Of a stretch of 23,618 nt of DNA, positions 8,077 through 15,173 are shown one piece after another. The notes below the pieces were generated by a model. The model had not been told where the DNA came from. It saw only the letters and a list, made by a program, of their open reading frames with translations, and made no database searches. The position numbers were made by a program, and so were the translations under genes. The stretch is from an uncultured archaeon (GTDB lineage Archaea > Asgardarchaeota > Thorarchaeia > Thorarchaeales > Thorarchaeaceae), in the NCBI GenBank assembly GCA_964473825.1, contig CAYYQL010000037.1, forward strand, positions 1 to 23,618, read 5' to 3'. Numbering within the stretch: position 1 is the stretch's first letter; the number at the start of each line of letters is the position of its first letter.

Positions 8077-9093
8077 CTACTCGTCACTGACCTCTTTCAG
8101 TTTTGTACTCCATGCGCGTATGTCCTTGTTCAATCTTGCAATGTCATTCTCATTCAACGTAGCAGTAGGCGGATATGACTTCAGCTCTCTTGCCACTTTC
8201 CCGACCTGATGTAAGACAGGCGTGTGCATTGAAATTAGCTCTGTTAGTTCATCACGCACCCGTTCAAGAGCAGCACCCATATCTCTGGCCTCAGTCTTCG
8301 AATCTACTTTCTTCAGAAGGGTCCCCATGAGTTCATCAACTGTTGATTCTGAGACCACCTTGCTCGGCTCTACGGGCTCCTTGGTGCTCTTCTTCTTTGC
8401 CTTAGACTTTTTTCCAGACTCTAGCGGTGATGACTCTGTAGAGTCGGCAAGTTGTTGAACAGAGGAGATCACTTCATCAATCTTGTCAAGAGACTTGTTG
8501 TACTTCCTCTCGAGATCATCAAGCTGACGGACGAGAATTCCAACGATCTCTTTCGTATCTGCTTGCGCACTGGCCAAATCCTTCACTCTCTCTTCCAGAG
8601 TGGAGAGGCTGGCCACATATTGCTGCAGATCATCGATCTTCTTCCCCAACACTTCCGAGTCTTTGCTCTCGCTGATCTCCTCAATACTTGATTGCATCTC
8701 TTTTAGAAACTCGCTCATGCCCTCAATCTTTGCCTCAACATCGACGAGTTGTTTCTGGGTCTGATCCTCTGCCATCTTGGTGAGGACACTCTGGAGCGAT
8801 GATGTCACTTCATTAACTTTTTCATCCAGCTTTTCAATCTCCTTAGAGTTGTCCAGAGATGGAAGACTCCTGTCGAACTCCTTCATATTGTCCAGAAGTT
8901 CATCCATTTTCGAGAGAGCTGCTACTTCCTTCTGTATCGCCTTGACCTCATCTGTCAGGGAATCAACAGTCTTGCTCATATCAGCGATGTCCGATAGTGG
9001 TTTGAGTTCTTTGGATATCTTGTCTACTTCTTCAGACAGCTTGTCGACTTTTTTCTCGAGATTGTCCATTTGCTTTGACTGGTCTGTCGACAT
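8077..9093 (-). CDS. Coiled-coil protein with Lys-rich linker and C-terminal four-helix domain (Vps28-CTD-like by eye)
   Basis: Heptad-rich first ~215 aa, KKSKAKKKSTKEP linker, then an ~85-aa helical domain ending LKSYPPTATLNENDIARLNKDIRAW; GAGG SD upstream. Confidence 0.75.
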   Translation of the reverse strand: MSTDQSKQMDNLEKKVDKLSEEVDKISKELKPLSDIADMSKTVDSLTDEVKAIQKEVAALSKMDELLDNMKEFDRSLPSLDNSKEIEKLDEKVNEVTSSLQSVLTKMAEDQTQKQLVDVEAKIEGMSEFLKEMQSSIEEISESKDSEVLGKKIDDLQQYVASLSTLEERVKDLASAQADTKEIVGILVRQLDDLERKYNKSLDKIDEVISSVQQLADSTESSPLESGKKSKAKKKSTKEPVEPSKVVSESTVDELMGTLLKKVDSKTEARDMGAALERVRDELTELISMHTPVLHQVGKVARELKSYPPTATLNENDIARLNKDIRAWSTKLKEVSDE

Positions 9094-9206
9094 CGTTTCC
9101 CCTCATTTCTGTGGAGCCAGTCTGAGAATGAACAAGAGTCAGTATTTAGCCTTTCGGGAGTTGTTATGCGAAATGGAAAGACAATTGATATTGCAGGAAG
9201 TGAGTG

Positions 9207-10055
9207 TCACCCCTCCCGGATGACTTCAATACCCAACTGTTCTAGCATCGGCACGAATGTATCACGTTGCTTCGCATTCGTTCCCTTCCAGTCAACTACG
9301 GCGGCAGTCACCTTCTCTGCGGACCGATGAATCATCTGATTCACGACCTCCTCTGTTATACCGTCCAGAGCGTACTTAGGAGCCATGTGGCCAATCCTGT
9401 ACTCCTCTGAGAGAACTAGTTTATTGAACTTGCTAGCGTAGTGAGTACCCCCGAATCCTATCACGCTCTCCGCCCCAATGGGAGCATTCGCACACTTCAT
9501 CACAGCCTCTGCAACGATACTTGCCCCAATTTCATGCGTCCAGTAGTGTTCATCACTACCCAGCTCCACAAAGAGCATTGGCGTGTCAAGTGCGGTAGGC
9601 CCGTGATGAGTTACCTCAAGTGACACATCGAAATCTGAGAGATTGCGATCGTTTCTCTCGTGGTAAAGAGTCCGGAGTGCCACTGAAACCAAAGATGCAA
9701 CTGAAACCGATAGCGAATAGGAACTGCCTCCAAATGCAGCCTCAGCTCCAAGATTACCGGTGCTGTGAACGAGCAGAGATGGTTTGCCAGATTCAGACCG
9801 ATGACGAGAGCAGAAGATGAAGACCTCTGCTTCCAGGTCTCCCTCAAGATGGTCGGAGTAGATGAGATCGCGGTTCGACGTGACAAGCTGAACTGAGTCA
9901 TTGTGAGCCATGACAGGATGGCCGTCGAATTCACTCTCTGTCTCAGTGAAACCATGTTCCTCTATGAGAGCCTGTCTTATTGTCTGGCTGGCAAGGTCAT
10001 GCTCAGACGTCACGAGTATCCTCAGAACCAACACCTTCAGGTAAGTTAACGACAC
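9207..10055 (-). CDS. dtdA: D-aminoacyl-tRNA deacylase (DTD2/GEK1 family)
   Basis: FCSRHRS, LVHSTGN, EVTHHGPT, FVELGS, IGFGGTHYA, GHMAPKY; the real start is probably GTG/TTG at ~10034/10031. Confidence 0.95.
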   Translation of the reverse strand: MSLTYLKVLVLRILVTSEHDLASQTIRQALIEEHGFTETESEFDGHPVMAHNDSVQLVTSNRDLIYSDHLEGDLEAEVFIFCSRHRSESGKPSLLVHSTGNLGAEAAFGGSSYSLSVSVASLVSVALRTLYHERNDRNLSDFDVSLEVTHHGPTALDTPMLFVELGSDEHYWTHEIGASIVAEAVMKCANAPIGAESVIGFGGTHYASKFNKLVLSEEYRIGHMAPKYALDGITEEVVNQMIHRSAEKVTAAVVDWKGTNAKQRDTFVPMLEQLGIEVIREG

Positions 10056-11280
10056 ATTCCTTGAGGAGAGGCTGCAAAGTCACACCCAAATCAATCGTGA
10101 CTTTCTTGCCCAGATTCTTGGCTATCTCAGCCTCAATGCGCTTCTTGAAGTCCTCAGCCTTTTCCAGCTGTTTCTTGATGTCATCTCGAATTCGAAGCAG
10201 GTCGTTGTTGTGATATTGAACATTCTTCTCTGCCTCTCGGACCATTCCCTCAAGCTCCTCGGTCCTACGGTATATCTCAGACCCGGCATACTCCTTCCTC
10301 TTGCGGTCTATCTCCTTGGCCTTATCCTGATACTCCTGCAGCTCGCCTTTCTTGATGATCTCTATCTCCTCGATGGCCCTTCTTGCCAATCGATCCTTCA
10401 ATGGGAACGCATCACGCTCGATGGCGGTTTCCATCGCCTCCAAACCCTCCAGCAATCCCGGACAGCCGTTGGGTTCCTCGACGATAGCCTCGAACGGATC
10501 CTCGAAATAGTCTGTCAGGGCCTTCTGGCCGGATGGGCTCACTCGGACGCCAGTATCGTGCTGCAGAAATTTCTTGATAGGCTTCTTGAGTGTGTTCAGC
10601 TTCATCCTTAGAACACTGCCAATATGCTCCGACTCTTCATCAAGATTGAGAACCTCAGAAACATTTGACTCATTCTTGAACTCCTCCAGTTCTTTCTTTG
10701 CGGCCAGATAGTCCTCTTCGGCCTGCCTGATCTTCATTTTCGTCTGACGTATGTCTTCTTGGATGATGTCCTTGCTGAAGGTAAGTTCGCGCAGCGTCTG
10801 GATACGTTCAGCGGTGCGTTCCAGATCTTGCACCCAGTTGTATTCATACAGGAGCTTCCCAATGATCTTCAGTTCCTTGCTCAGCTCCTTCATGTAATCG
10901 TCCAGCTGCTTTATGGTGCCCTTGTGTTTCTTGTCCATACGCTTGATCCAGCGAGCACCAGCCCCCCAGAGTTCTTGGATGAAGTGTTGAATCTCCTCCA
11001 TCATCTGCTCAGTACTCTCATATGATATCTCTTGGCTGACGTCAAAATCCTCAACTACATTGTCAATCTTCAGGGCAAAACGTACCGCTATGCCCACTGA
11101 CTCTTGATCTTCATCTTCGGCACTTGCTTCTCTCAGTTCTGTTGCAACAGCCTGAACGTCCTTAAGGGCCCGGTCAACATTGCGGTAACTCCTTTCAGCC
11201 TTCTTCCTGAAGTCCTGCGACTTCTTCTCCAGTTCTATATTGTACCATAATTCCAGCTGCGCAAGAGTCAGTTCTGTCAT
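10003..11280 (-). CDS. Archaeal all-helical/coiled-coil protein with a central globular insert; no ATPase motifs
   Basis: E/K-rich helices flank LKKPIKKFL..YFEDPFEAIVEEPNG; no Walker A or B. Confidence 0.75.
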   Translation of the reverse strand: MTELTLAQLELWYNIELEKKSQDFRKKAERSYRNVDRALKDVQAVATELREASAEDEDQESVGIAVRFALKIDNVVEDFDVSQEISYESTEQMMEEIQHFIQELWGAGARWIKRMDKKHKGTIKQLDDYMKELSKELKIIGKLLYEYNWVQDLERTAERIQTLRELTFSKDIIQEDIRQTKMKIRQAEEDYLAAKKELEEFKNESNVSEVLNLDEESEHIGSVLRMKLNTLKKPIKKFLQHDTGVRVSPSGQKALTDYFEDPFEAIVEEPNGCPGLLEGLEAMETAIERDAFPLKDRLARRAIEEIEIIKKGELQEYQDKAKEIDRKRKEYAGSEIYRRTEELEGMVREAEKNVQYHNNDLLRIRDDIKKQLEKAEDFKKRIEAEIAKNLGKKVTIDLGVTLQPLLKECVVNLPEGVGSEDTRDV

Positions 11281-11396
11281 TCCCTAAGACACCTAGACAA
11301 GTAGTCGCCTTCTGTGTGATTTATCAACTTTGCGAACTACTCAACTGCGCACCGGACTCCGACGTGCACATAACGTTATTCATACCACGGATTACG

Positions 11397-11403
11397 TTTA
11401 TAA
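11397..11403 (+). promoter_or_regulatory. TATA box (TTTATAA) for the candidate selenoprotein gene
   Basis: Canonical archaeal TATA ~45 nt upstream of ATG 11448. Confidence 0.55.
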
Positions 11404-11447
11404 CGCCCGAGAAGAAGGGATGGCCAGTAAATGAAACGTGGTCTCTA

Positions 11448-12251
11448 ATGACAGAAATCATGGAAACTGGCCGACGCTTCCCGCGACTGGATATTGCGTA
11501 TGCAATCGAATGCATGTCATGAGGCAAAGGTCGCACAGGTTTCTACATCAAGAGGCTGAGTTACATAGACTCCGATTCAATGGAACAATTGCTCCTCAAG
11601 AATCCAGCTGATAATCAGAGTGGGTTCTGGGTGTCATACAAATACAATGGTCAGCTAACCAGGGTGAGTTCCACAGAGACCGAGTGCTTCTCAGATGTCA
11701 AGACGGCACCCGACGGCGAGAAGCTCATCGTGACCATGGACCACACCCCTCTCGATTCGGTCGAGAGAGTCATGCGATTCAAAATCGAGCTCTGGAGCTT
11801 CGAGAAGCCCATGCTATTCATCAAGCACACATCGACGAACATGAGTAAGGCTCCTATCGAAGATCTGAAGCTCTTCAATCTCATGGACTTCGACCTTGGG
11901 GGACCAACTAGCTACAAAGATGACATGGGAGCATTCGATGCCAAAAGCGGAGTCATGCGGGTCTGTGATGACACACCACTGTGCGTTGCTCTGACATCTA
12001 GACCCACTCCCGATGGCTGGGAGCTCTCGGCCCCAACGAAACTGCGACTCACCCAAACTGACCGCGAACTCAAGAATAATCTTGAGCTTGGCCCACAAGA
12101 CGTTGCCACAGGGTTGCAATGGAACTTGGGCAACATCGATGCAGGCGAATCGAAATCAGTGTCCCTGGTGATAACGGTCGGACAGAATACTGAAGAGGCG
12201 GATAAGCTCCTTCCAAAGGCTTGGGAGGAGTTCGACACGAAGATACGATGA
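11448..12251 (+). CDS. Candidate selenoprotein (267 aa; CxxU with Sec at TGA 11520-11522), probable beta-sandwich (mutarotase/glucoamylase N-domain-like) fold
   Basis: MTEIMETGRRFPRLDIAYAIECMS-TGA-GKGRTGFYIKRLSYIDSDS joins in frame to the 11580-12251 ORF; upstream TATA and downstream SECIS-like hairpin. The 11580-12251 portion is clearly coding either way. Confidence 0.72.
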
Positions 12252-12285
12252 CGTCGCTGCGTAAAGCACTGCAGCACCGACTGAG
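12248..12285 (+). ncRNA. Eukaryote/Asgard-type SECIS-like cis element
   Basis: ATGA(12248-51)-11 nt-AAA(12263-65)...TGAG(12282-85); stem GTC/GAC plus GCTGC/GCAGC; flanking GAAGAT(12239-44)/ATCTTC(12303-08). Confidence 0.6.
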
Positions 12286-12328
12286 AAAGGGAAGCCCCCT
12301 TTATCTTCTACGCGTGCGCCCGCTGGAG

Positions 12329-12366
12329 AAAAAAGCCAAGACGGGGATTCAGAAGACTCCCCGTCT
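12329..12366 (-). terminator. Hairpin plus T-run terminator of the wHTH gene
   Basis: AGACGGGGA/TCCCCGTCT 9-bp stem (12339-47/12358-66) followed on the minus strand by GGCTTTTTT, just after the stop at 12371. Confidence 0.6.
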
Positions 12367-12370
12367 CAGT

Positions 12371-12796
12371 TCACTTGCTGTGTTGCATTTCAAGGTGATG
12401 CACCAAGAGTCGTGCAGAAGAGCTTAGTTCAGCTCTACGCCCTCTGTTCTCGGAATCACCACCATCCAACAGCCCCAAGTCCATTAGCGACCGCAAGTTC
12501 CACTTCGTAGTGGAGTACGGCACATCCGTTCTCCTTGAGACCATGTCAGCCAAGGCCGTCACTGTCACATCATGATGACGTAACAGTGAGGCACTGACTC
12601 TCAGAACCAGTTTCTGAGTGTCGCTCAACCTGGCTTCTGCTAGCTTGAAGAACGAAGCTACAACACTCTCGAAGGAAGGCATCTGATAGAAATAGCTGTC
12701 TCCTAAGACCTCACGGTCACTGGAGAACACATTCACCTCTGGGGTGAATTTCATACTCACCGTTTCGGTCGCTGACCCGACACTGATGGGCATCAT
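12371..12796 (-). CDS. Winged helix-turn-helix DNA-binding protein; start uncertain (12796, GTG 12730 or ATG 12682)
   Basis: LSDTQKLVL..TVTALADMVSRRTDVPYSTTKWNLRSLMDLGLL..AELSSSARLL wHTH pattern. Confidence 0.8.
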   Translation of the reverse strand: MMPISVGSATETVSMKFTPEVNVFSSDREVLGDSYFYQMPSFESVVASFFKLAEARLSDTQKLVLRVSASLLRHHDVTVTALADMVSRRTDVPYSTTKWNLRSLMDLGLLDGGDSENRGRRAELSSSARLLVHHLEMQHSK

Positions 12797-12815
12797 CTGC
12801 TGAATTGTTACCCAT
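12717..12815 (-). CDS. Possible 32-aa upstream ORF/leader peptide
   Basis: GAGGTGA SD (12825-31) 9 nt before the ATG; MGNNSADDAHQCRVSDRNGEYEIHPRGECVLQ*; out of frame with the wHTH gene. Confidence 0.35.
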   Translation of the reverse strand: MGNNSADDAHQCRVSDRNGEYEIHPRGECVLQ

Positions 12816-12902
12816 TTCGCTTTTTCACCTCATTTTCTTATTTGGGTCAGGTCAAGTCTTGCAAAACTCTCACTTAAACGTTGAGGGGTAGAGTACGCAA
12901 CA

Positions 12903-13397
12903 TCAAGTCATCTCTTCGGGAATCTCAAGACCTAGACTCTTGAGTTTGGCGAAACCCTTGCTGTAGAGGCTCATATGGTGGCGAATGTCTTCCTCAGTGT
13001 CTGCGATGGCTTCAAGTGCACCTGCAATGTTGTCAAGTCCTCCAGCCCGGTAGTCCTCCATCATCTCGGCAACAATGTCACTCATTTTCAGCATTGCATC
13101 CTGTATCACTCCGCTCAGGCTGATCATCGACTGCACCGTTTCACGGGTAGATGGGTCTGGCATATATGGGACGAAATCCTCAAGCGCGATGCTTGCCTTT
13201 TTGCAACTCTCAATCCTGCCAGGTATCAGTTCTTCCTGCATCTTCTGCATCCATCCGAGCCGCTCTTCACTGGTCAAGTCACGAAGATTGGCCGGAGAGA
13301 AATATGCAGTCCAAGGGCCAAACTCCTCGGTCTCATAGTAGATCCAGTTGTCAAAGGCTGACAGCACTGTCTTCCATCCTACAGACATCTCAGACAT
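12903..13397 (-). CDS. Hypothetical acidic helical protein
   Basis: 164-aa ORF with protein-like composition; TATA at 13428-13434. Confidence 0.75.
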   Translation of the reverse strand: MSEMSVGWKTVLSAFDNWIYYETEEFGPWTAYFSPANLRDLTSEERLGWMQKMQEELIPGRIESCKKASIALEDFVPYMPDPSTRETVQSMISLSGVIQDAMLKMSDIVAEMMEDYRAGGLDNIAGALEAIADTEEDIRHHMSLYSKGFAKLKSLGLEIPEEMT

Positions 13398-13427
13398 TTT
13401 CGTTCACATACTGGTATTTGCTTCATG

Positions 13428-13434
13428 TTTTAAA
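13428..13434. promoter_or_regulatory. TATA box (TTTTAAA) between divergent genes
   Basis: Only AT-run in the short divergent gap. Confidence 0.45.
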
Positions 13435-13448
13435 GTAACGTGGAGGAC

Positions 13449-14129
13449 ATGAGTTATGACATGAACGACACAATTCAGCACATCCTAGGAATGTTAAAGG
13501 AGAGTAAGGACCGAGATGCAGTCCTCCTTGCAGATCCTGTAGATATCAGGTTGCTCCAAAAGCTGGGTGTGAGCAATCTGGATGATGGACAGTGGATTGT
13601 GAAAAGGGAAGAGCGGATTGACCTTGCCACGGTAGCGGTCTCACATGGTGTCGATATGGAGAGGGTTGTGAAAGTGATGAGTTGGAAAGACTTCGAGGGC
13701 TTCGTGGGGAGGGTCTTGGACGAGAATGGCTACAAATACACAGAGAGCTTCAGAAAGAGGGGAACAGGCGAGACCGAAGGGATGGAGATTGATGTCGTAG
13801 GAGTGAAGGGCAAAAGAATCCTCTCATTAGATGCGAAGATGTGGGGAGACCGGTCAGGCAAGACCTCAGCCCTTGTAGCTGCAGCAGAGAAACAGGCAAC
13901 ACGAACCAGCAGACTGGGGAATGAACTGGAGCGGCTTCAGAAGAAGATCGGGGTCTTGAGACCAGGTGAATACAATCTCTTGCCTGCAATCGTGACCTGG
14001 CTTGTTGAAGACATTCAGTTTCATGAGGGAGTGCCTATCGTACCGATATTCAAGCTCAATGCATTCCTTCTCGAGCTTGATAATTTCGCCCATTCGATGA
14101 TCAGCTACAAGATCAAAGTGGGCTCATAG
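13449..14129 (+). CDS. PD-(D/E)xK restriction-endonuclease-fold protein (Mrr-cat-like)
   Basis: SWKDFEGFVGRVLDENGY..EIDVVG..LSLDAKMW; ATG 13449 follows GGAGG (ORF track starts at GTG 13440). Confidence 0.85.
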   Translation: MSYDMNDTIQHILGMLKESKDRDAVLLADPVDIRLLQKLGVSNLDDGQWIVKREERIDLATVAVSHGVDMERVVKVMSWKDFEGFVGRVLDENGYKYTESFRKRGTGETEGMEIDVVGVKGKRILSLDAKMWGDRSGKTSALVAAAEKQATRTSRLGNELERLQKKIGVLRPGEYNLLPAIVTWLVEDIQFHEGVPIVPIFKLNAFLLELDNFAHSMISYKIKVGS

Positions 14130-15173
14130 ATTGAGTCTTTTTGCCTTTTCAGGAAGAAGCAGCGTATTCTTCACCGTATCCAAGAGAAGCACGGTGGCAA
14201 ACATGTCAATCCCTGCTTCAAGTCCCTTACTCATAGAGGGATAGCTATAGAGATTTCTTTTTGTTGCCTCTGCCAAAGATTCCACACGTTTCTCAGGACA
14301 ATCAGGAAGCTCCTTTTCAAGTGCAGAAGCATCATGTGCAAGTCGCTTGATTACCTTGCCCAGTATCGGGTCATTGACCGACTCTGCGGTCATGCATGCC
14401 TTCCCAGCACCACAGGCCGGACCATCACAGTCAAAGCTACCATGAGCAAAGATGAGCACGCTCCTATCTTGAGGGATCTCTTCCAGCCAGACTTCGAAGA
14501 AGGAGTCCAACTGCTGGGTCTCATCAGGTCTACCTGTGTACTGCGGGATGTGCCCACCGAGCGACTCGATAGCCATAGGCAGTCCGTCTGGTGTGGGAGG
14601 CGGCTCGACACGAGAATCAGAACAGACTGTCGCCAATACCTTTGAGTCGATGTCTCTTGGTCGTTTCGTTTTGGCAGCAAGCTCGGCCTCCAACGAGAGG
14701 TCGCGGAGAGCCTCGTGGTCCAAAGCCTCGACAAATCCGTTGGTATAGTCAGCACTGAAGCAGACAATCGGGATATTCTGAGCACCTGGATGGCGGACGA
14801 GGTTCCTCACGGACTCGTCACAGATTGATGGGTCTTCATTCTTGTCAAATGTCATGATGATAGCACGATGACGCGGGAAACCACTGTTATAGGCAACAGG
14901 CCCACCGTAGAGGAAAAGAGAGTCCTCCACGGGAAGAAGGGGAAATCCAGGTACACGCGTTCCATGGAATGCATCGCCCTGTAACATGGAAAGAAGCTCC
15001 AAGTCCTGCAGGCTGTGAGTGATGGGAGATATCAGCATATACTCGGGCGACTGGCCTAGTCTCGCAGCATTCATCCTACGGACATATTCGGGATCAGAGA
15101 GCTTCTTCTGCAGCTCTCGGTCTGCAATGGCCAGAATATCGTTAATCATGATGCTGCACCGAGATGCACGCAT
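14124..15173 (-). CDS. Divergent two-domain beta-class carbonic anhydrase-like protein
   Basis: C-terminal half has CSDSRV and AHGSFDCDGPACGA Zn ligands; N-terminal half LGQSPEYMLIS..QGDAF..R resembles a beta-CA without ligands. Confidence 0.65.
   Translation of the reverse strand: MRASRCSIMINDILAIADRELQKKLSDPEYVRRMNAARLGQSPEYMLISPITHSLQDLELLSMLQGDAFHGTRVPGFPLLPVEDSLFLYGGPVAYNSGFPRHRAIIMTFDKNEDPSICDESVRNLVRHPGAQNIPIVCFSADYTNGFVEALDHEALRDLSLEAELAAKTKRPRDIDSKVLATVCSDSRVEPPPTPDGLPMAIESLGGHIPQYTGRPDETQQLDSFFEVWLEEIPQDRSVLIFAHGSFDCDGPACGAGKACMTAESVNDPILGKVIKRLAHDASALEKELPDCPEKRVESLAEATKRNLYSYPSMSKGLEAGIDMFATVLLLDTVKNTLLLPEKAKRLNL

Follow-up and report, generated by a model that had tools for sequence, protein, structure and literature searches.

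A predicted Asgard selenoprotein family with selenocysteine in a super-beta-sandwich and a SECIS element overlapping the stop codon

Does an in-frame UGA in the genome of an uncultured Thorarchaeaceae archaeon end a short open reading frame (ORF), or is it decoded as selenocysteine (Sec) within one longer gene? The window, by which we mean the whole stretch of 23,618 nucleotides analysed (contig CAYYQL010000037.1 of assembly GCA_964473825.1), holds this codon at 11520–11522, between two ORFs of the same frame. A reading made from the letters alone, here called the sequence-only reading, had joined the two ORFs into a 267-residue protein with a CxxU motif and had proposed an unrecognised selenoprotein family on a non-thioredoxin fold that standard annotation truncates. 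On comparative sequence evidence, we conclude that UGA 11520–11522 is almost certainly read as Sec. It is also very probable that 11448–12251 is one gene, encoding a 267-residue cytoplasmic selenoprotein in which the UGA is recoded, a selenocysteine insertion sequence (SECIS) element overlaps the stop codon, and the chain adopts a super-beta-sandwich fold. The case for a recoding context rests on the UGA itself, the SECIS element, the Sec machinery of the genome and the cysteine-containing homologues.

One reading frame across the UGA

The ORF at 11316–11522 closes at TGA 11520–11522 and shares its frame with the ORF at 11580–12251, and the 19 codons that separate them (11523–11579) contain no stop. 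An open gap of this size is expected by chance with a probability of about 0.4, at 3 stops per 64 codons, and is unremarkable alone; it is conservation, not the length of the gap, that takes the joining of the two frames beyond chance. Translation of the joined frame from ATG 11448, taking TGA as U, gives ...ECMS-U-GKGRTGFYIKRLSY..., in which Cys22 and Sec25 form the CxxU motif, and the frame closes at TGA 12249–12251. Inspection and translation thus bear out the single frame, its 19 stop-free codons and the 267-residue product with Cys22 and a TGA at codon 25, all as the sequence-only reading had them. Gene callers retain only 11580–12251, as a 223-residue hypothetical protein. Database members of the family, the named ones all called 'hypothetical protein', begin at residues 34–49, so the suspected truncation by standard annotation is real.

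Conservation was assessed by a six-frame search of 60 relatives, in which 29 of the 36 genomes of the same family carried the gene and all full-length matches crossed the TGA. These matches began at residues 40–45 of a longer query, which correspond to ATG 11448. A scan of one genome per species yielded 42 loci, nearly all labelled Candidatus Thorarchaeota, which places the organism among the Thorarchaeia-type Asgard archaea. Codon 25 was TGA in 39/39 of the Thorarchaeota-type orthologues compared. Across these 39 orthologues, mean pairwise identity at codon positions 1, 2 and 3 was 0.71, 0.85 and 0.44 before the TGA, and 0.72, 0.82 and 0.53 between the TGA and the annotated ATG; the lower identity at third positions on both sides indicates translated sequence. 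Twenty loci shared the pattern M-x-E-x-L-E-T-G…P-R-L-D-x-x-Y-x-V-E-C-x-S-U-G-x-G-R-x-G-F-Y-x-K-R-L-S-L-I-D, which was kept down to about 40% identity, and the orthologues were uniformly 266–268 amino acids long with Sec at position 25. In the 19-orthologue alignment, residues 1–45 hold 12 of the 36 invariant columns and belong to the best conserved part of the protein, and the Met encoded at 11580 (Met45) is confined to the genus and is not conserved outside it. Conservation therefore covers all of residues 1–45, before as well as after the TGA, and does not begin only at Met45.

We then considered the wider family. A profile search against 1.84 billion representatives returned 113 proteins, of which the close ones were all N-terminally truncated. 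More distant, full-length proteins from Asgard ('Promethearchaeota') metagenome-assembled genomes have CxxC or CxxCxxC in the aligned position (P0021, P0023, P0030, P0050, P0052 and P0095, with loci L086 and L091 of genome family f29; P0021, P0050, P0030 and P0095 form the CxxCxxC group), and these Cys homologues run continuously through the site. Among 400 genomes of the phylum, the gene was found in 77/85 genomes of family f1 (Thor-type), 124/135 of f9, 11/14 of f29, 3/4 of f30 and 5/5 of f16. All of the full-length f1 matches listed cross a TGA. In f9, whose source names are Lokiarchaeota or Lokiarchaeia (Loki-type below), 24 of 27 loci have TGA within the motif [A/I/L]-[T/I/A/L]-U-[N/D]-x-x-G-Y. 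The corresponding motif is C-T-I-U, also CSIU, in f30 (Sigynarchaeum-type), C-S-K-U in f16 and C-V-N-C in f29, a family that includes closed genomes of 4.3–6.0 Mb. An alignment of 20 sequences that are 19–51% identical to the window protein leaves seven columns invariant, among them the Sec/Cys column. Homologues with Cys or TGA aligned to position 25 are thus found in several families of Asgard genomes. A genuine Trp never occupies the site: the single database 'W' (P0012) is a TGA translated with code 4 (TGA=W).

The genome also encodes the machinery that the sequence-only reading had called for. A tRNA-Sec lies on contig 35 (13550–13636; 61 bits), is called SeC by ARAGORN with anticodon tca, and is adjoined by a PSTK-like gene whose match stays below its cut-off. 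The genes for SepSecS (472 bits) and SelB (288 bits) lie side by side on contig 3, and both exceed their cut-offs, as does SelD (404 bits). TGA closes 554 of the 1371 long frames in the genome (about 40%); its common use as an ordinary stop indicates that the genetic code has not been reassigned. As a separate observation, the SelD match (C8:32609–33535, minus strand) contains no in-frame stop and lies within a 749-codon open frame. From its sequence, SelD may here be Cys-type or fused, unlike the Sec-containing SelD of most Asgard archaea.

The downstream SECIS element and the predicted decoding of the UGA

Downstream of the gene, an alignment of 43 sequences outlined a structure that begins within the coding sequence (Table 1). 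Over the whole structure, 81.8% of the cells were paired, compared with 67.5% in shuffles and 40–50% with slid partners, and the covariation was 0.465, compared with 0.205 and 0.10–0.19, respectively. Helix II, of 8 bp, had 92.4% of its cells paired, with compensatory changes in 8/8 pairs. The loop follows the consensus GUAAAGC-NNN-GCA, then N-G-A, in which AAA is invariant or nearly so, and a possible 2-bp ministem after the GUAAAGC loop is paired in 90.8%. The second hairpin (GGG-NAGCN-CCC type) has 76.7% of its cells paired and both-side changes in 4/5 pairs, and an equivalent hairpin is seen 3' of the Loki-type and Sigynarchaeum-type genes, as well as behind the SECIS of VhuU. A CUUC(U) run that follows the second hairpin is able to base-pair with the conserved Lys-Lys codons (GAAGA) that precede the stop, and this pairing, as helix I, would give a three-way junction. 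The stop codon was TGA in all of the first 20 orthologues, and the base preceding the stop TGA is A in 37 and G in 4 of the 44 loci. At L074, the core is a GUGA out of frame, and the stop is a UAA inside the GUAAAG apical loop. The SECIS, which overlaps the stop codon, was not part of the sequence-only reading.

The element agrees with the general model for eukaryotic-like SECIS elements of Asgard archaea, which comprises an [A/G]UGA_GA core, an upper stem, and unpaired A's, which are at the top in type I and precede a ministem in type II (Huang 2024, PMC11227280): the core is AUGA or GUGA, the GA is invariant, A's are unpaired and a ministem is possible. A loop beginning with G-U-A-A-A has been described for Thorarchaeia frhA (Huang 2024, PMC11227280). 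Loki-type orthologues are laid out alike and bear the Loki AAAAA loop. The genome's own VhuU gene (YDC-U-LSCGAH) carries a SECIS of this form too, with a GUAAAG loop and likewise overlapping the stop, so the form is used by a bona fide selenoprotein gene. Set beside the Asgard genes with lokiSECIS elements (VhuU/FrhA, HdrA-VhuD, SelD and Prx-like; PMC4989117, PMC11227280), the element is alike in the 3' AUGA...GA core, the helix of about 8 bp and the unpaired apical A's. It differs in that the overlap with the stop is fixed in 43/44 loci and in that a second hairpin stands between the core GA and helix I, a comparison made with the text of the published models. An AUGA that serves as the stop codon has been reported for Loki VhuU.1 (PMC4989117).

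These features suggest how the gene may be expressed. Transcription would start downstream of the TATA box at 11397, which is present as the sequence-only reading had stated; a TATA-like hexamer stands 38–62 nt before the start in 34/40 orthologues, mostly at −49 to −53. The ribosome would start at ATG 11448. Most orthologues have a Shine-Dalgarno-like GTGATC before this ATG, which looks like a Shine-Dalgarno complement, and the window has a weaker GTGGTC. With the AUGA core of the SECIS overlapping the end of the coding sequence, a ribosome that reaches the second UGA (12249–12251) would already have melted the element, so that this UGA would terminate translation. It has been argued that a UGA cannot be recoded by a SECIS that lies too near it (PMC4989117). 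A second Sec at the terminal TGA was considered and ruled out, as the downstream sequence is conserved as RNA structure and not as protein. We also observed that the short leader at 11424–11447 is conserved in the more distant orthologues (L038–L079) as …GCATAGG…GTGATCGGTC-ATG.

Table 1. Positions in the window of the predicted selenoprotein gene, its promoter and the parts of the proposed SECIS element
Feature	Position	Strand	Remarks
TATA-like box TTTATAA	11397..11403	+	51 nt 5' of ATG 11448
Predicted full selenoprotein coding sequence	11448..12251	+	267 codons plus stop; start aligned in 19 orthologues, 266–268 aa
Cys22 codon, first residue of CxxU	11511..11513	+	Invariant in 19 Thorarchaeota-type orthologues
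In-frame UGA, predicted Sec25	11520..11522	+	TGA in 39/39 orthologues; TGA or Cys in distant homologues
Whole SECIS as proposed (helix I, core, helix II, apical loop, second hairpin)	12239..12308	+	43-sequence alignment
Proposed helix I	12239–12244 with 12303–12308	+	Weakest part, 69% paired
AUGA core, its UGA being the stop codon of the gene	12248..12251	+	43/44 loci end in TGA
Helix II and apical loop GUAAAGC-ACU-GCA	12253..12281	+	12253–12260 pairs with 12274–12281; C.C mismatch 12257/12277
3' GA of the core, kink-turn partner of the UGA	12283..12284	+	Invariant A and G columns, 43 sequences
Second hairpin, stem AAAGGG/CCCUUU, loop AAGCC	12286..12302	+	Between core GA and 3' strand of helix I

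Predicted fold, chemistry and competing explanations

The structure of the protein was predicted with AlphaFold2 on the 19-sequence alignment, and folds were compared by Foldseek and VIA-align. The model (predicted local distance difference test score, pLDDT, 87.5; predicted template modelling score 0.88) is built of 18 strands and a single C-terminal helix. The sandwich includes residues 2–5, 13–20 and 32–40 as strands, so that residues 1–44 supply three of them. The best structural match was the N-domain of glucodextranase (1ug9, residues 19–258; Z 23.7, root mean square deviation 2.5 Å over 226 residues). The N-domains of the GH15 glucodextranase and glucoamylase gave Z 23.7 and 23.0, and further matches were to dextran dextrinase and to GH94, GH116 and GH149 enzymes. 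The whole chain, residues 1–267, superposes on these super-beta-sandwich N-domains with Z 21–24 and deviations of 2.5–2.9 Å over 226–238 residues. The model thus identifies the fold as a stand-alone super-beta-sandwich of the GH15/GH94/GH65 N-domain type. A thioredoxin-like alpha/beta fold was not found around the CxxU, the model being all-beta apart from the one helix; the earlier guess of a carbohydrate-enzyme beta-sandwich in place of a thioredoxin fold was therefore a good one.

Likeness of fold to the N-domains of GH15, GH94, GH65 and GH116 enzymes (galactose-mutarotase-like fold; 1ug9, 1lf6, 4zlf) extends over the whole chain, whereas sequence identity to these N-domains is 8–16%, with no Pfam match and no (alpha/alpha)6 catalytic domain. 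The protein ends at residue 267, without a second domain or a catalytic glycosidase domain. The joined protein matched no Pfam family at E<=1 and no NCBIfam family, and the 223-residue ORF alone gave a weak DUF11 match (E 0.15). Remote matches to residues ~104–262 lay inside large proteins that contain transglutaminase, PKD or CarboxypepD_reg domains; they indicate a common beta-sandwich module, not a function. Nor does the common fold establish a carbohydrate function, and we know of no Sec or CxxC in N-domains of the GH15/GH94 type.

Sec25 itself lies in a low-confidence loop between the predicted strands 13–20 and 32–40, and residues 22–24 of the CxxU loop are the only stretch of at least three residues with pLDDT below 50. 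CxxU after a beta-strand, followed by Gly, is a classic signature of redox selenoproteins. The thioredoxin-fold CxxU selenoproteins (SelW/Rdx, SelT, SelH and SelM/Sep15) share this arrangement and have CxxC in their Cys homologues; the present protein differs from them in its all-beta super-sandwich and in that most Loki-type members lack the first Cys. Provided that the Sec is real, we judge the chances to be about even, or slightly better, that Sec25 serves as a redox or nucleophilic centre and cycles with a resolving Cys. The resolving partner would be Cys22 in the Thor-type CxxU and a Cys of the C-terminal tail in Loki-type forms without Cys22. Forms from f9, f29 and f30 are extended at the C-terminus by about 40 residues, with a Cys at the end (..EDCK, ..EWCKD, ..KYEC); among the aligned Loki-type forms, 7/8 lack Cys22 and 8/8 end in ..DC-x. 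Thor-type forms have Cys22 and lack the extension, and Cys22 without a tail Cys is found in the Thor type and in the CxxCxxC group. It is because Cys22 and the tail Cys occur in this complementary pattern that we infer a redox couple. In thioredoxin reductase, with its flexible GCUG tail, and in MsrB1, the Cys that resolves Sec is distant or lies in a tail. By analogy, the present family would resemble such selenoenzymes in pairing Sec with one adjacent (CxxU) or tail Cys, although the families and folds are unrelated and here the Sec is N-terminal and the Cys is in the tail.

A different role for the same residues is possible, if rather unlikely: the CxxU loop could be a metal-binding knuckle of the CxxC-G type, in which Sec25 and Cys22 would be the ligands of a metal (Zn, Fe, Ni or a soft one), perhaps where two subunits meet. 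The protein would then still be a selenoprotein. Zinc ribbons and rubredoxin have CxxC-G metal knuckles, and C-x-x-U-G, placed here in a loop that joins two predicted strands, bears a general resemblance to them; the three clustered Cys of the CxxCxxC homologues would also suit a metal site. Against this role, 7/8 of the aligned Loki-type forms lack a Cys at −3 and have only the distant tail Cys, and the Thor-type protein offers no third or fourth conserved ligand, Cys22 and Sec25 being its sole invariant Cys/Sec positions.

The other explanations concern the UGA itself. The locus could yield two products, a 24-residue ORF (11448–11522) that ends at a true stop and a 223-residue protein from ATG 11580. 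This is what gene callers output and what the database starts at residues 34–49 would suggest; a 46-amino-acid upstream piece is on record (P0113), and three Loki-type loci seem to work without the N-terminal segment. We nevertheless consider it very improbable, since Met45 is not conserved and annotated starts vary, the 19 codons from the TGA to Met45 are conserved as protein, and residues 1–44 form three predicted strands that align to solved N-domains from residue 1; moreover, the Cys homologues are continuous across the site and a SECIS is present. Readthrough that inserts a near-cognate standard amino acid (Trp, Cys or Arg), or a lineage-wide change of the code, has a marginally smaller chance again. 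One pipeline did translate the orthologue P0012 in this way, with Trp, but TGA is an ordinary stop for some 40% of long frames, the genome has the Sec machinery, the 3' element is formed like the VhuU SECIS, and the residue found at the site in homologues is Cys, the usual counterpart of Sec. Least credible of all is that the TGA is a sequencing or assembly error or that the gene is a pseudogene. The genome is a metagenome-assembled draft of 103 contigs with 4.4% contamination; however, this TGA is shared by dozens of assemblies made independently in different studies, which effectively refutes a sequencing error, and purifying selection is seen on both sides of the codon.

Several observations weigh against Sec decoding at this locus or against the redox role of Sec25. 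The PSTK match reached 132 bits against an NCBIfam cut-off of 290. Over 12150–12420, neither SECIS_1 (RF00031) nor any other Rfam SECIS model was among the matches up to E=10, and the Rfam matches obtained were due to chance. Folding of the window's element as a single sequence did not recover the structure (z −0.88), support for which comes from the comparison of sequences, and its own helix II has one C.C mismatch. In the Loki-type family, the remaining 3/27 loci (L089, L092 and L097, in genomes G264, G235 and G273) have AGA (Arg) at the site and a closed upstream frame, which indicates that the Sec segment is dispensable. A tRNA-Sec above the cut-off is present in five f29 genomes with the Cys form. 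The f16 genome G349, 100% complete in 8 contigs, has the C-S-K-U form and no tRNA-Sec above the Rfam cut-off (best score 39 bits). L074 (Thorarchaeota isolate A361) has Ile in place of Cys22. Finally, to our knowledge, the GH-type sandwich fold family is not known for redox chemistry.

Some of these cases carry further observations. On its sequence features, the element is one that works like a SECIS but lies outside the Rfam model; covariance models also miss Loki SECIS (Mariotti 2016, PMC4989117). The three Arg-form loci look like recent losses of the Sec segment, and a lokiSECIS-like element is retained downstream of each. Origin of the Cys form by loss of the Sec trait was considered and is ruled out by the tRNA-Sec in the five f29 genomes. 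The tRNA-Sec of G349 is either unusual, as reported for some Asgard classes, or unassembled.

Place among Asgard selenoproteins, and other loci of the genome

The published selenoproteome of Asgard archaea comprises seven families (SelD, FrhA/VhuU, HdrA, FrhD/VhuD, Prx-like, AhpF-N and DsbA-like), which were found by homology to known selenoproteins (PMC11227280); AhpF-N and DsbA-like were added for Asgard only in the two latest surveys (Huang 2024, PMC11227280; 2026 review, PMC13188914). The present protein has no homology to any of the seven, with no Pfam or NCBIfam match and an unrelated fold. Its family is not described in the Asgard selenoprotein surveys Mariotti 2016 (PMC4989117), Sun 2021, Huang 2024 (PMC11227280) and the 2026 review (PMC13188914), although other papers may hold it. 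Its absence from the published lists (PMC11227280; PMC13188914) agrees with the proposal of an unrecognised family. As read here, it is a new selenoprotein family and a new fold for Sec, served by a known decoding mechanism with a stop/SECIS overlap fixed in the family. A much fuller account is conceivable, and we regard it as speculative and on balance improbable: a major Asgard lineage-specific family that would be the first selenoenzyme on a GH-type super-beta-sandwich, with an exchangeable resolving Cys (CxxU or tail), a sandwich-bound substrate that is possibly sugar-derived or a glycan, and a SECIS in the form of a kink-turn three-way junction whose second hairpin would be functional in Asgard Sec decoding.

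The gene is surrounded by a block of seven other genes (8077–15173; L038–L079) that is syntenic in most of the 44 loci, with 19–40 loci per gene. The block contains a 338-amino-acid protein with weak, below-cut-off Pfam matches, a D-aminoacyl-tRNA-deacylase-like protein of 282 amino acids, proteins of 425, 141 and 164 amino acids without a Pfam match, an Mrr_cat-like protein of 229 amino acids and a 349-amino-acid protein. Gene context was set aside as a clue to function: none of the neighbours suggests a pathway, and the conserved order may simply have been inherited. Between the convergent genes, at 12340–12365, the window has a strong GC hairpin (GACGGGG…CCCCGTC) preceded by an A-run, which is a T-run on the minus strand. 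From its sequence, it looks like a terminator of the minus-strand 141-amino-acid gene, perhaps of both genes. Arrangements of an A-run and a hairpin also occur in orthologous loci.

Elsewhere in the genome, we searched for similar elements with a core SECIS model (R1), scoring 150 of 658 first-look candidates. The model found the element of the present gene and one on contig C9, but not that of VhuU. Scanning with a hand-written AUGA-stem-AAA-GA pattern gave 38 matches against 18 in reversed-sequence controls and was unspecific; only its four GUAAAG-loop matches were used. The C9 element (25084–25124, minus strand; 42.4 bits to the core SECIS model) has the same form and lies 24 nt after an 87-codon ORF (C9:25151–25411, minus strand, equivalent to L035:1565–1828, minus strand) whose hydrophobic N-terminus appears by eye to span the membrane. 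This ORF has one in-frame TGA, in P-D-N-R-T-U-[E/D]-x-Y-E-Y-I-D-H, with conservation on both sides in the three genomes of the genus, and is a candidate for a second unlisted small selenoprotein. Weak matches to it at L118 and L119 were rejected as spurious, being in the wrong frame. The VhuU gene (…YDC-U-LSCGAH…GGG-stop; contig C19, ~36250–36450, plus strand) has as its stop codon the UGA of the AUGA in its SECIS, and its sequence recurs at the end of contig C40, a sign of either an assembly overlap or a duplication.

The presence of the family in 77/85 Thorarchaeia-type and 124/135 Lokiarchaeia-type genomes implies that homology-based counts of Asgard selenoproteins (PMC11227280) are too low, and gene callers systematically truncate its protein. 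The family adds a non-thioredoxin fold to the folds that bear CxxU, and its natural Sec, Cys and Arg variants allow one to ask why selenium is used. About 40 covarying SECIS sequences bear on the rules for Asgard SECIS, which are held to be the forerunner of the eukaryotic ones, and the fixed overlap with the stop codon makes the minimal-distance rule testable. If the closed f29 genomes are those of cultured Lokiarchaeia, as we suppose, the function of the protein would be testable in culture.

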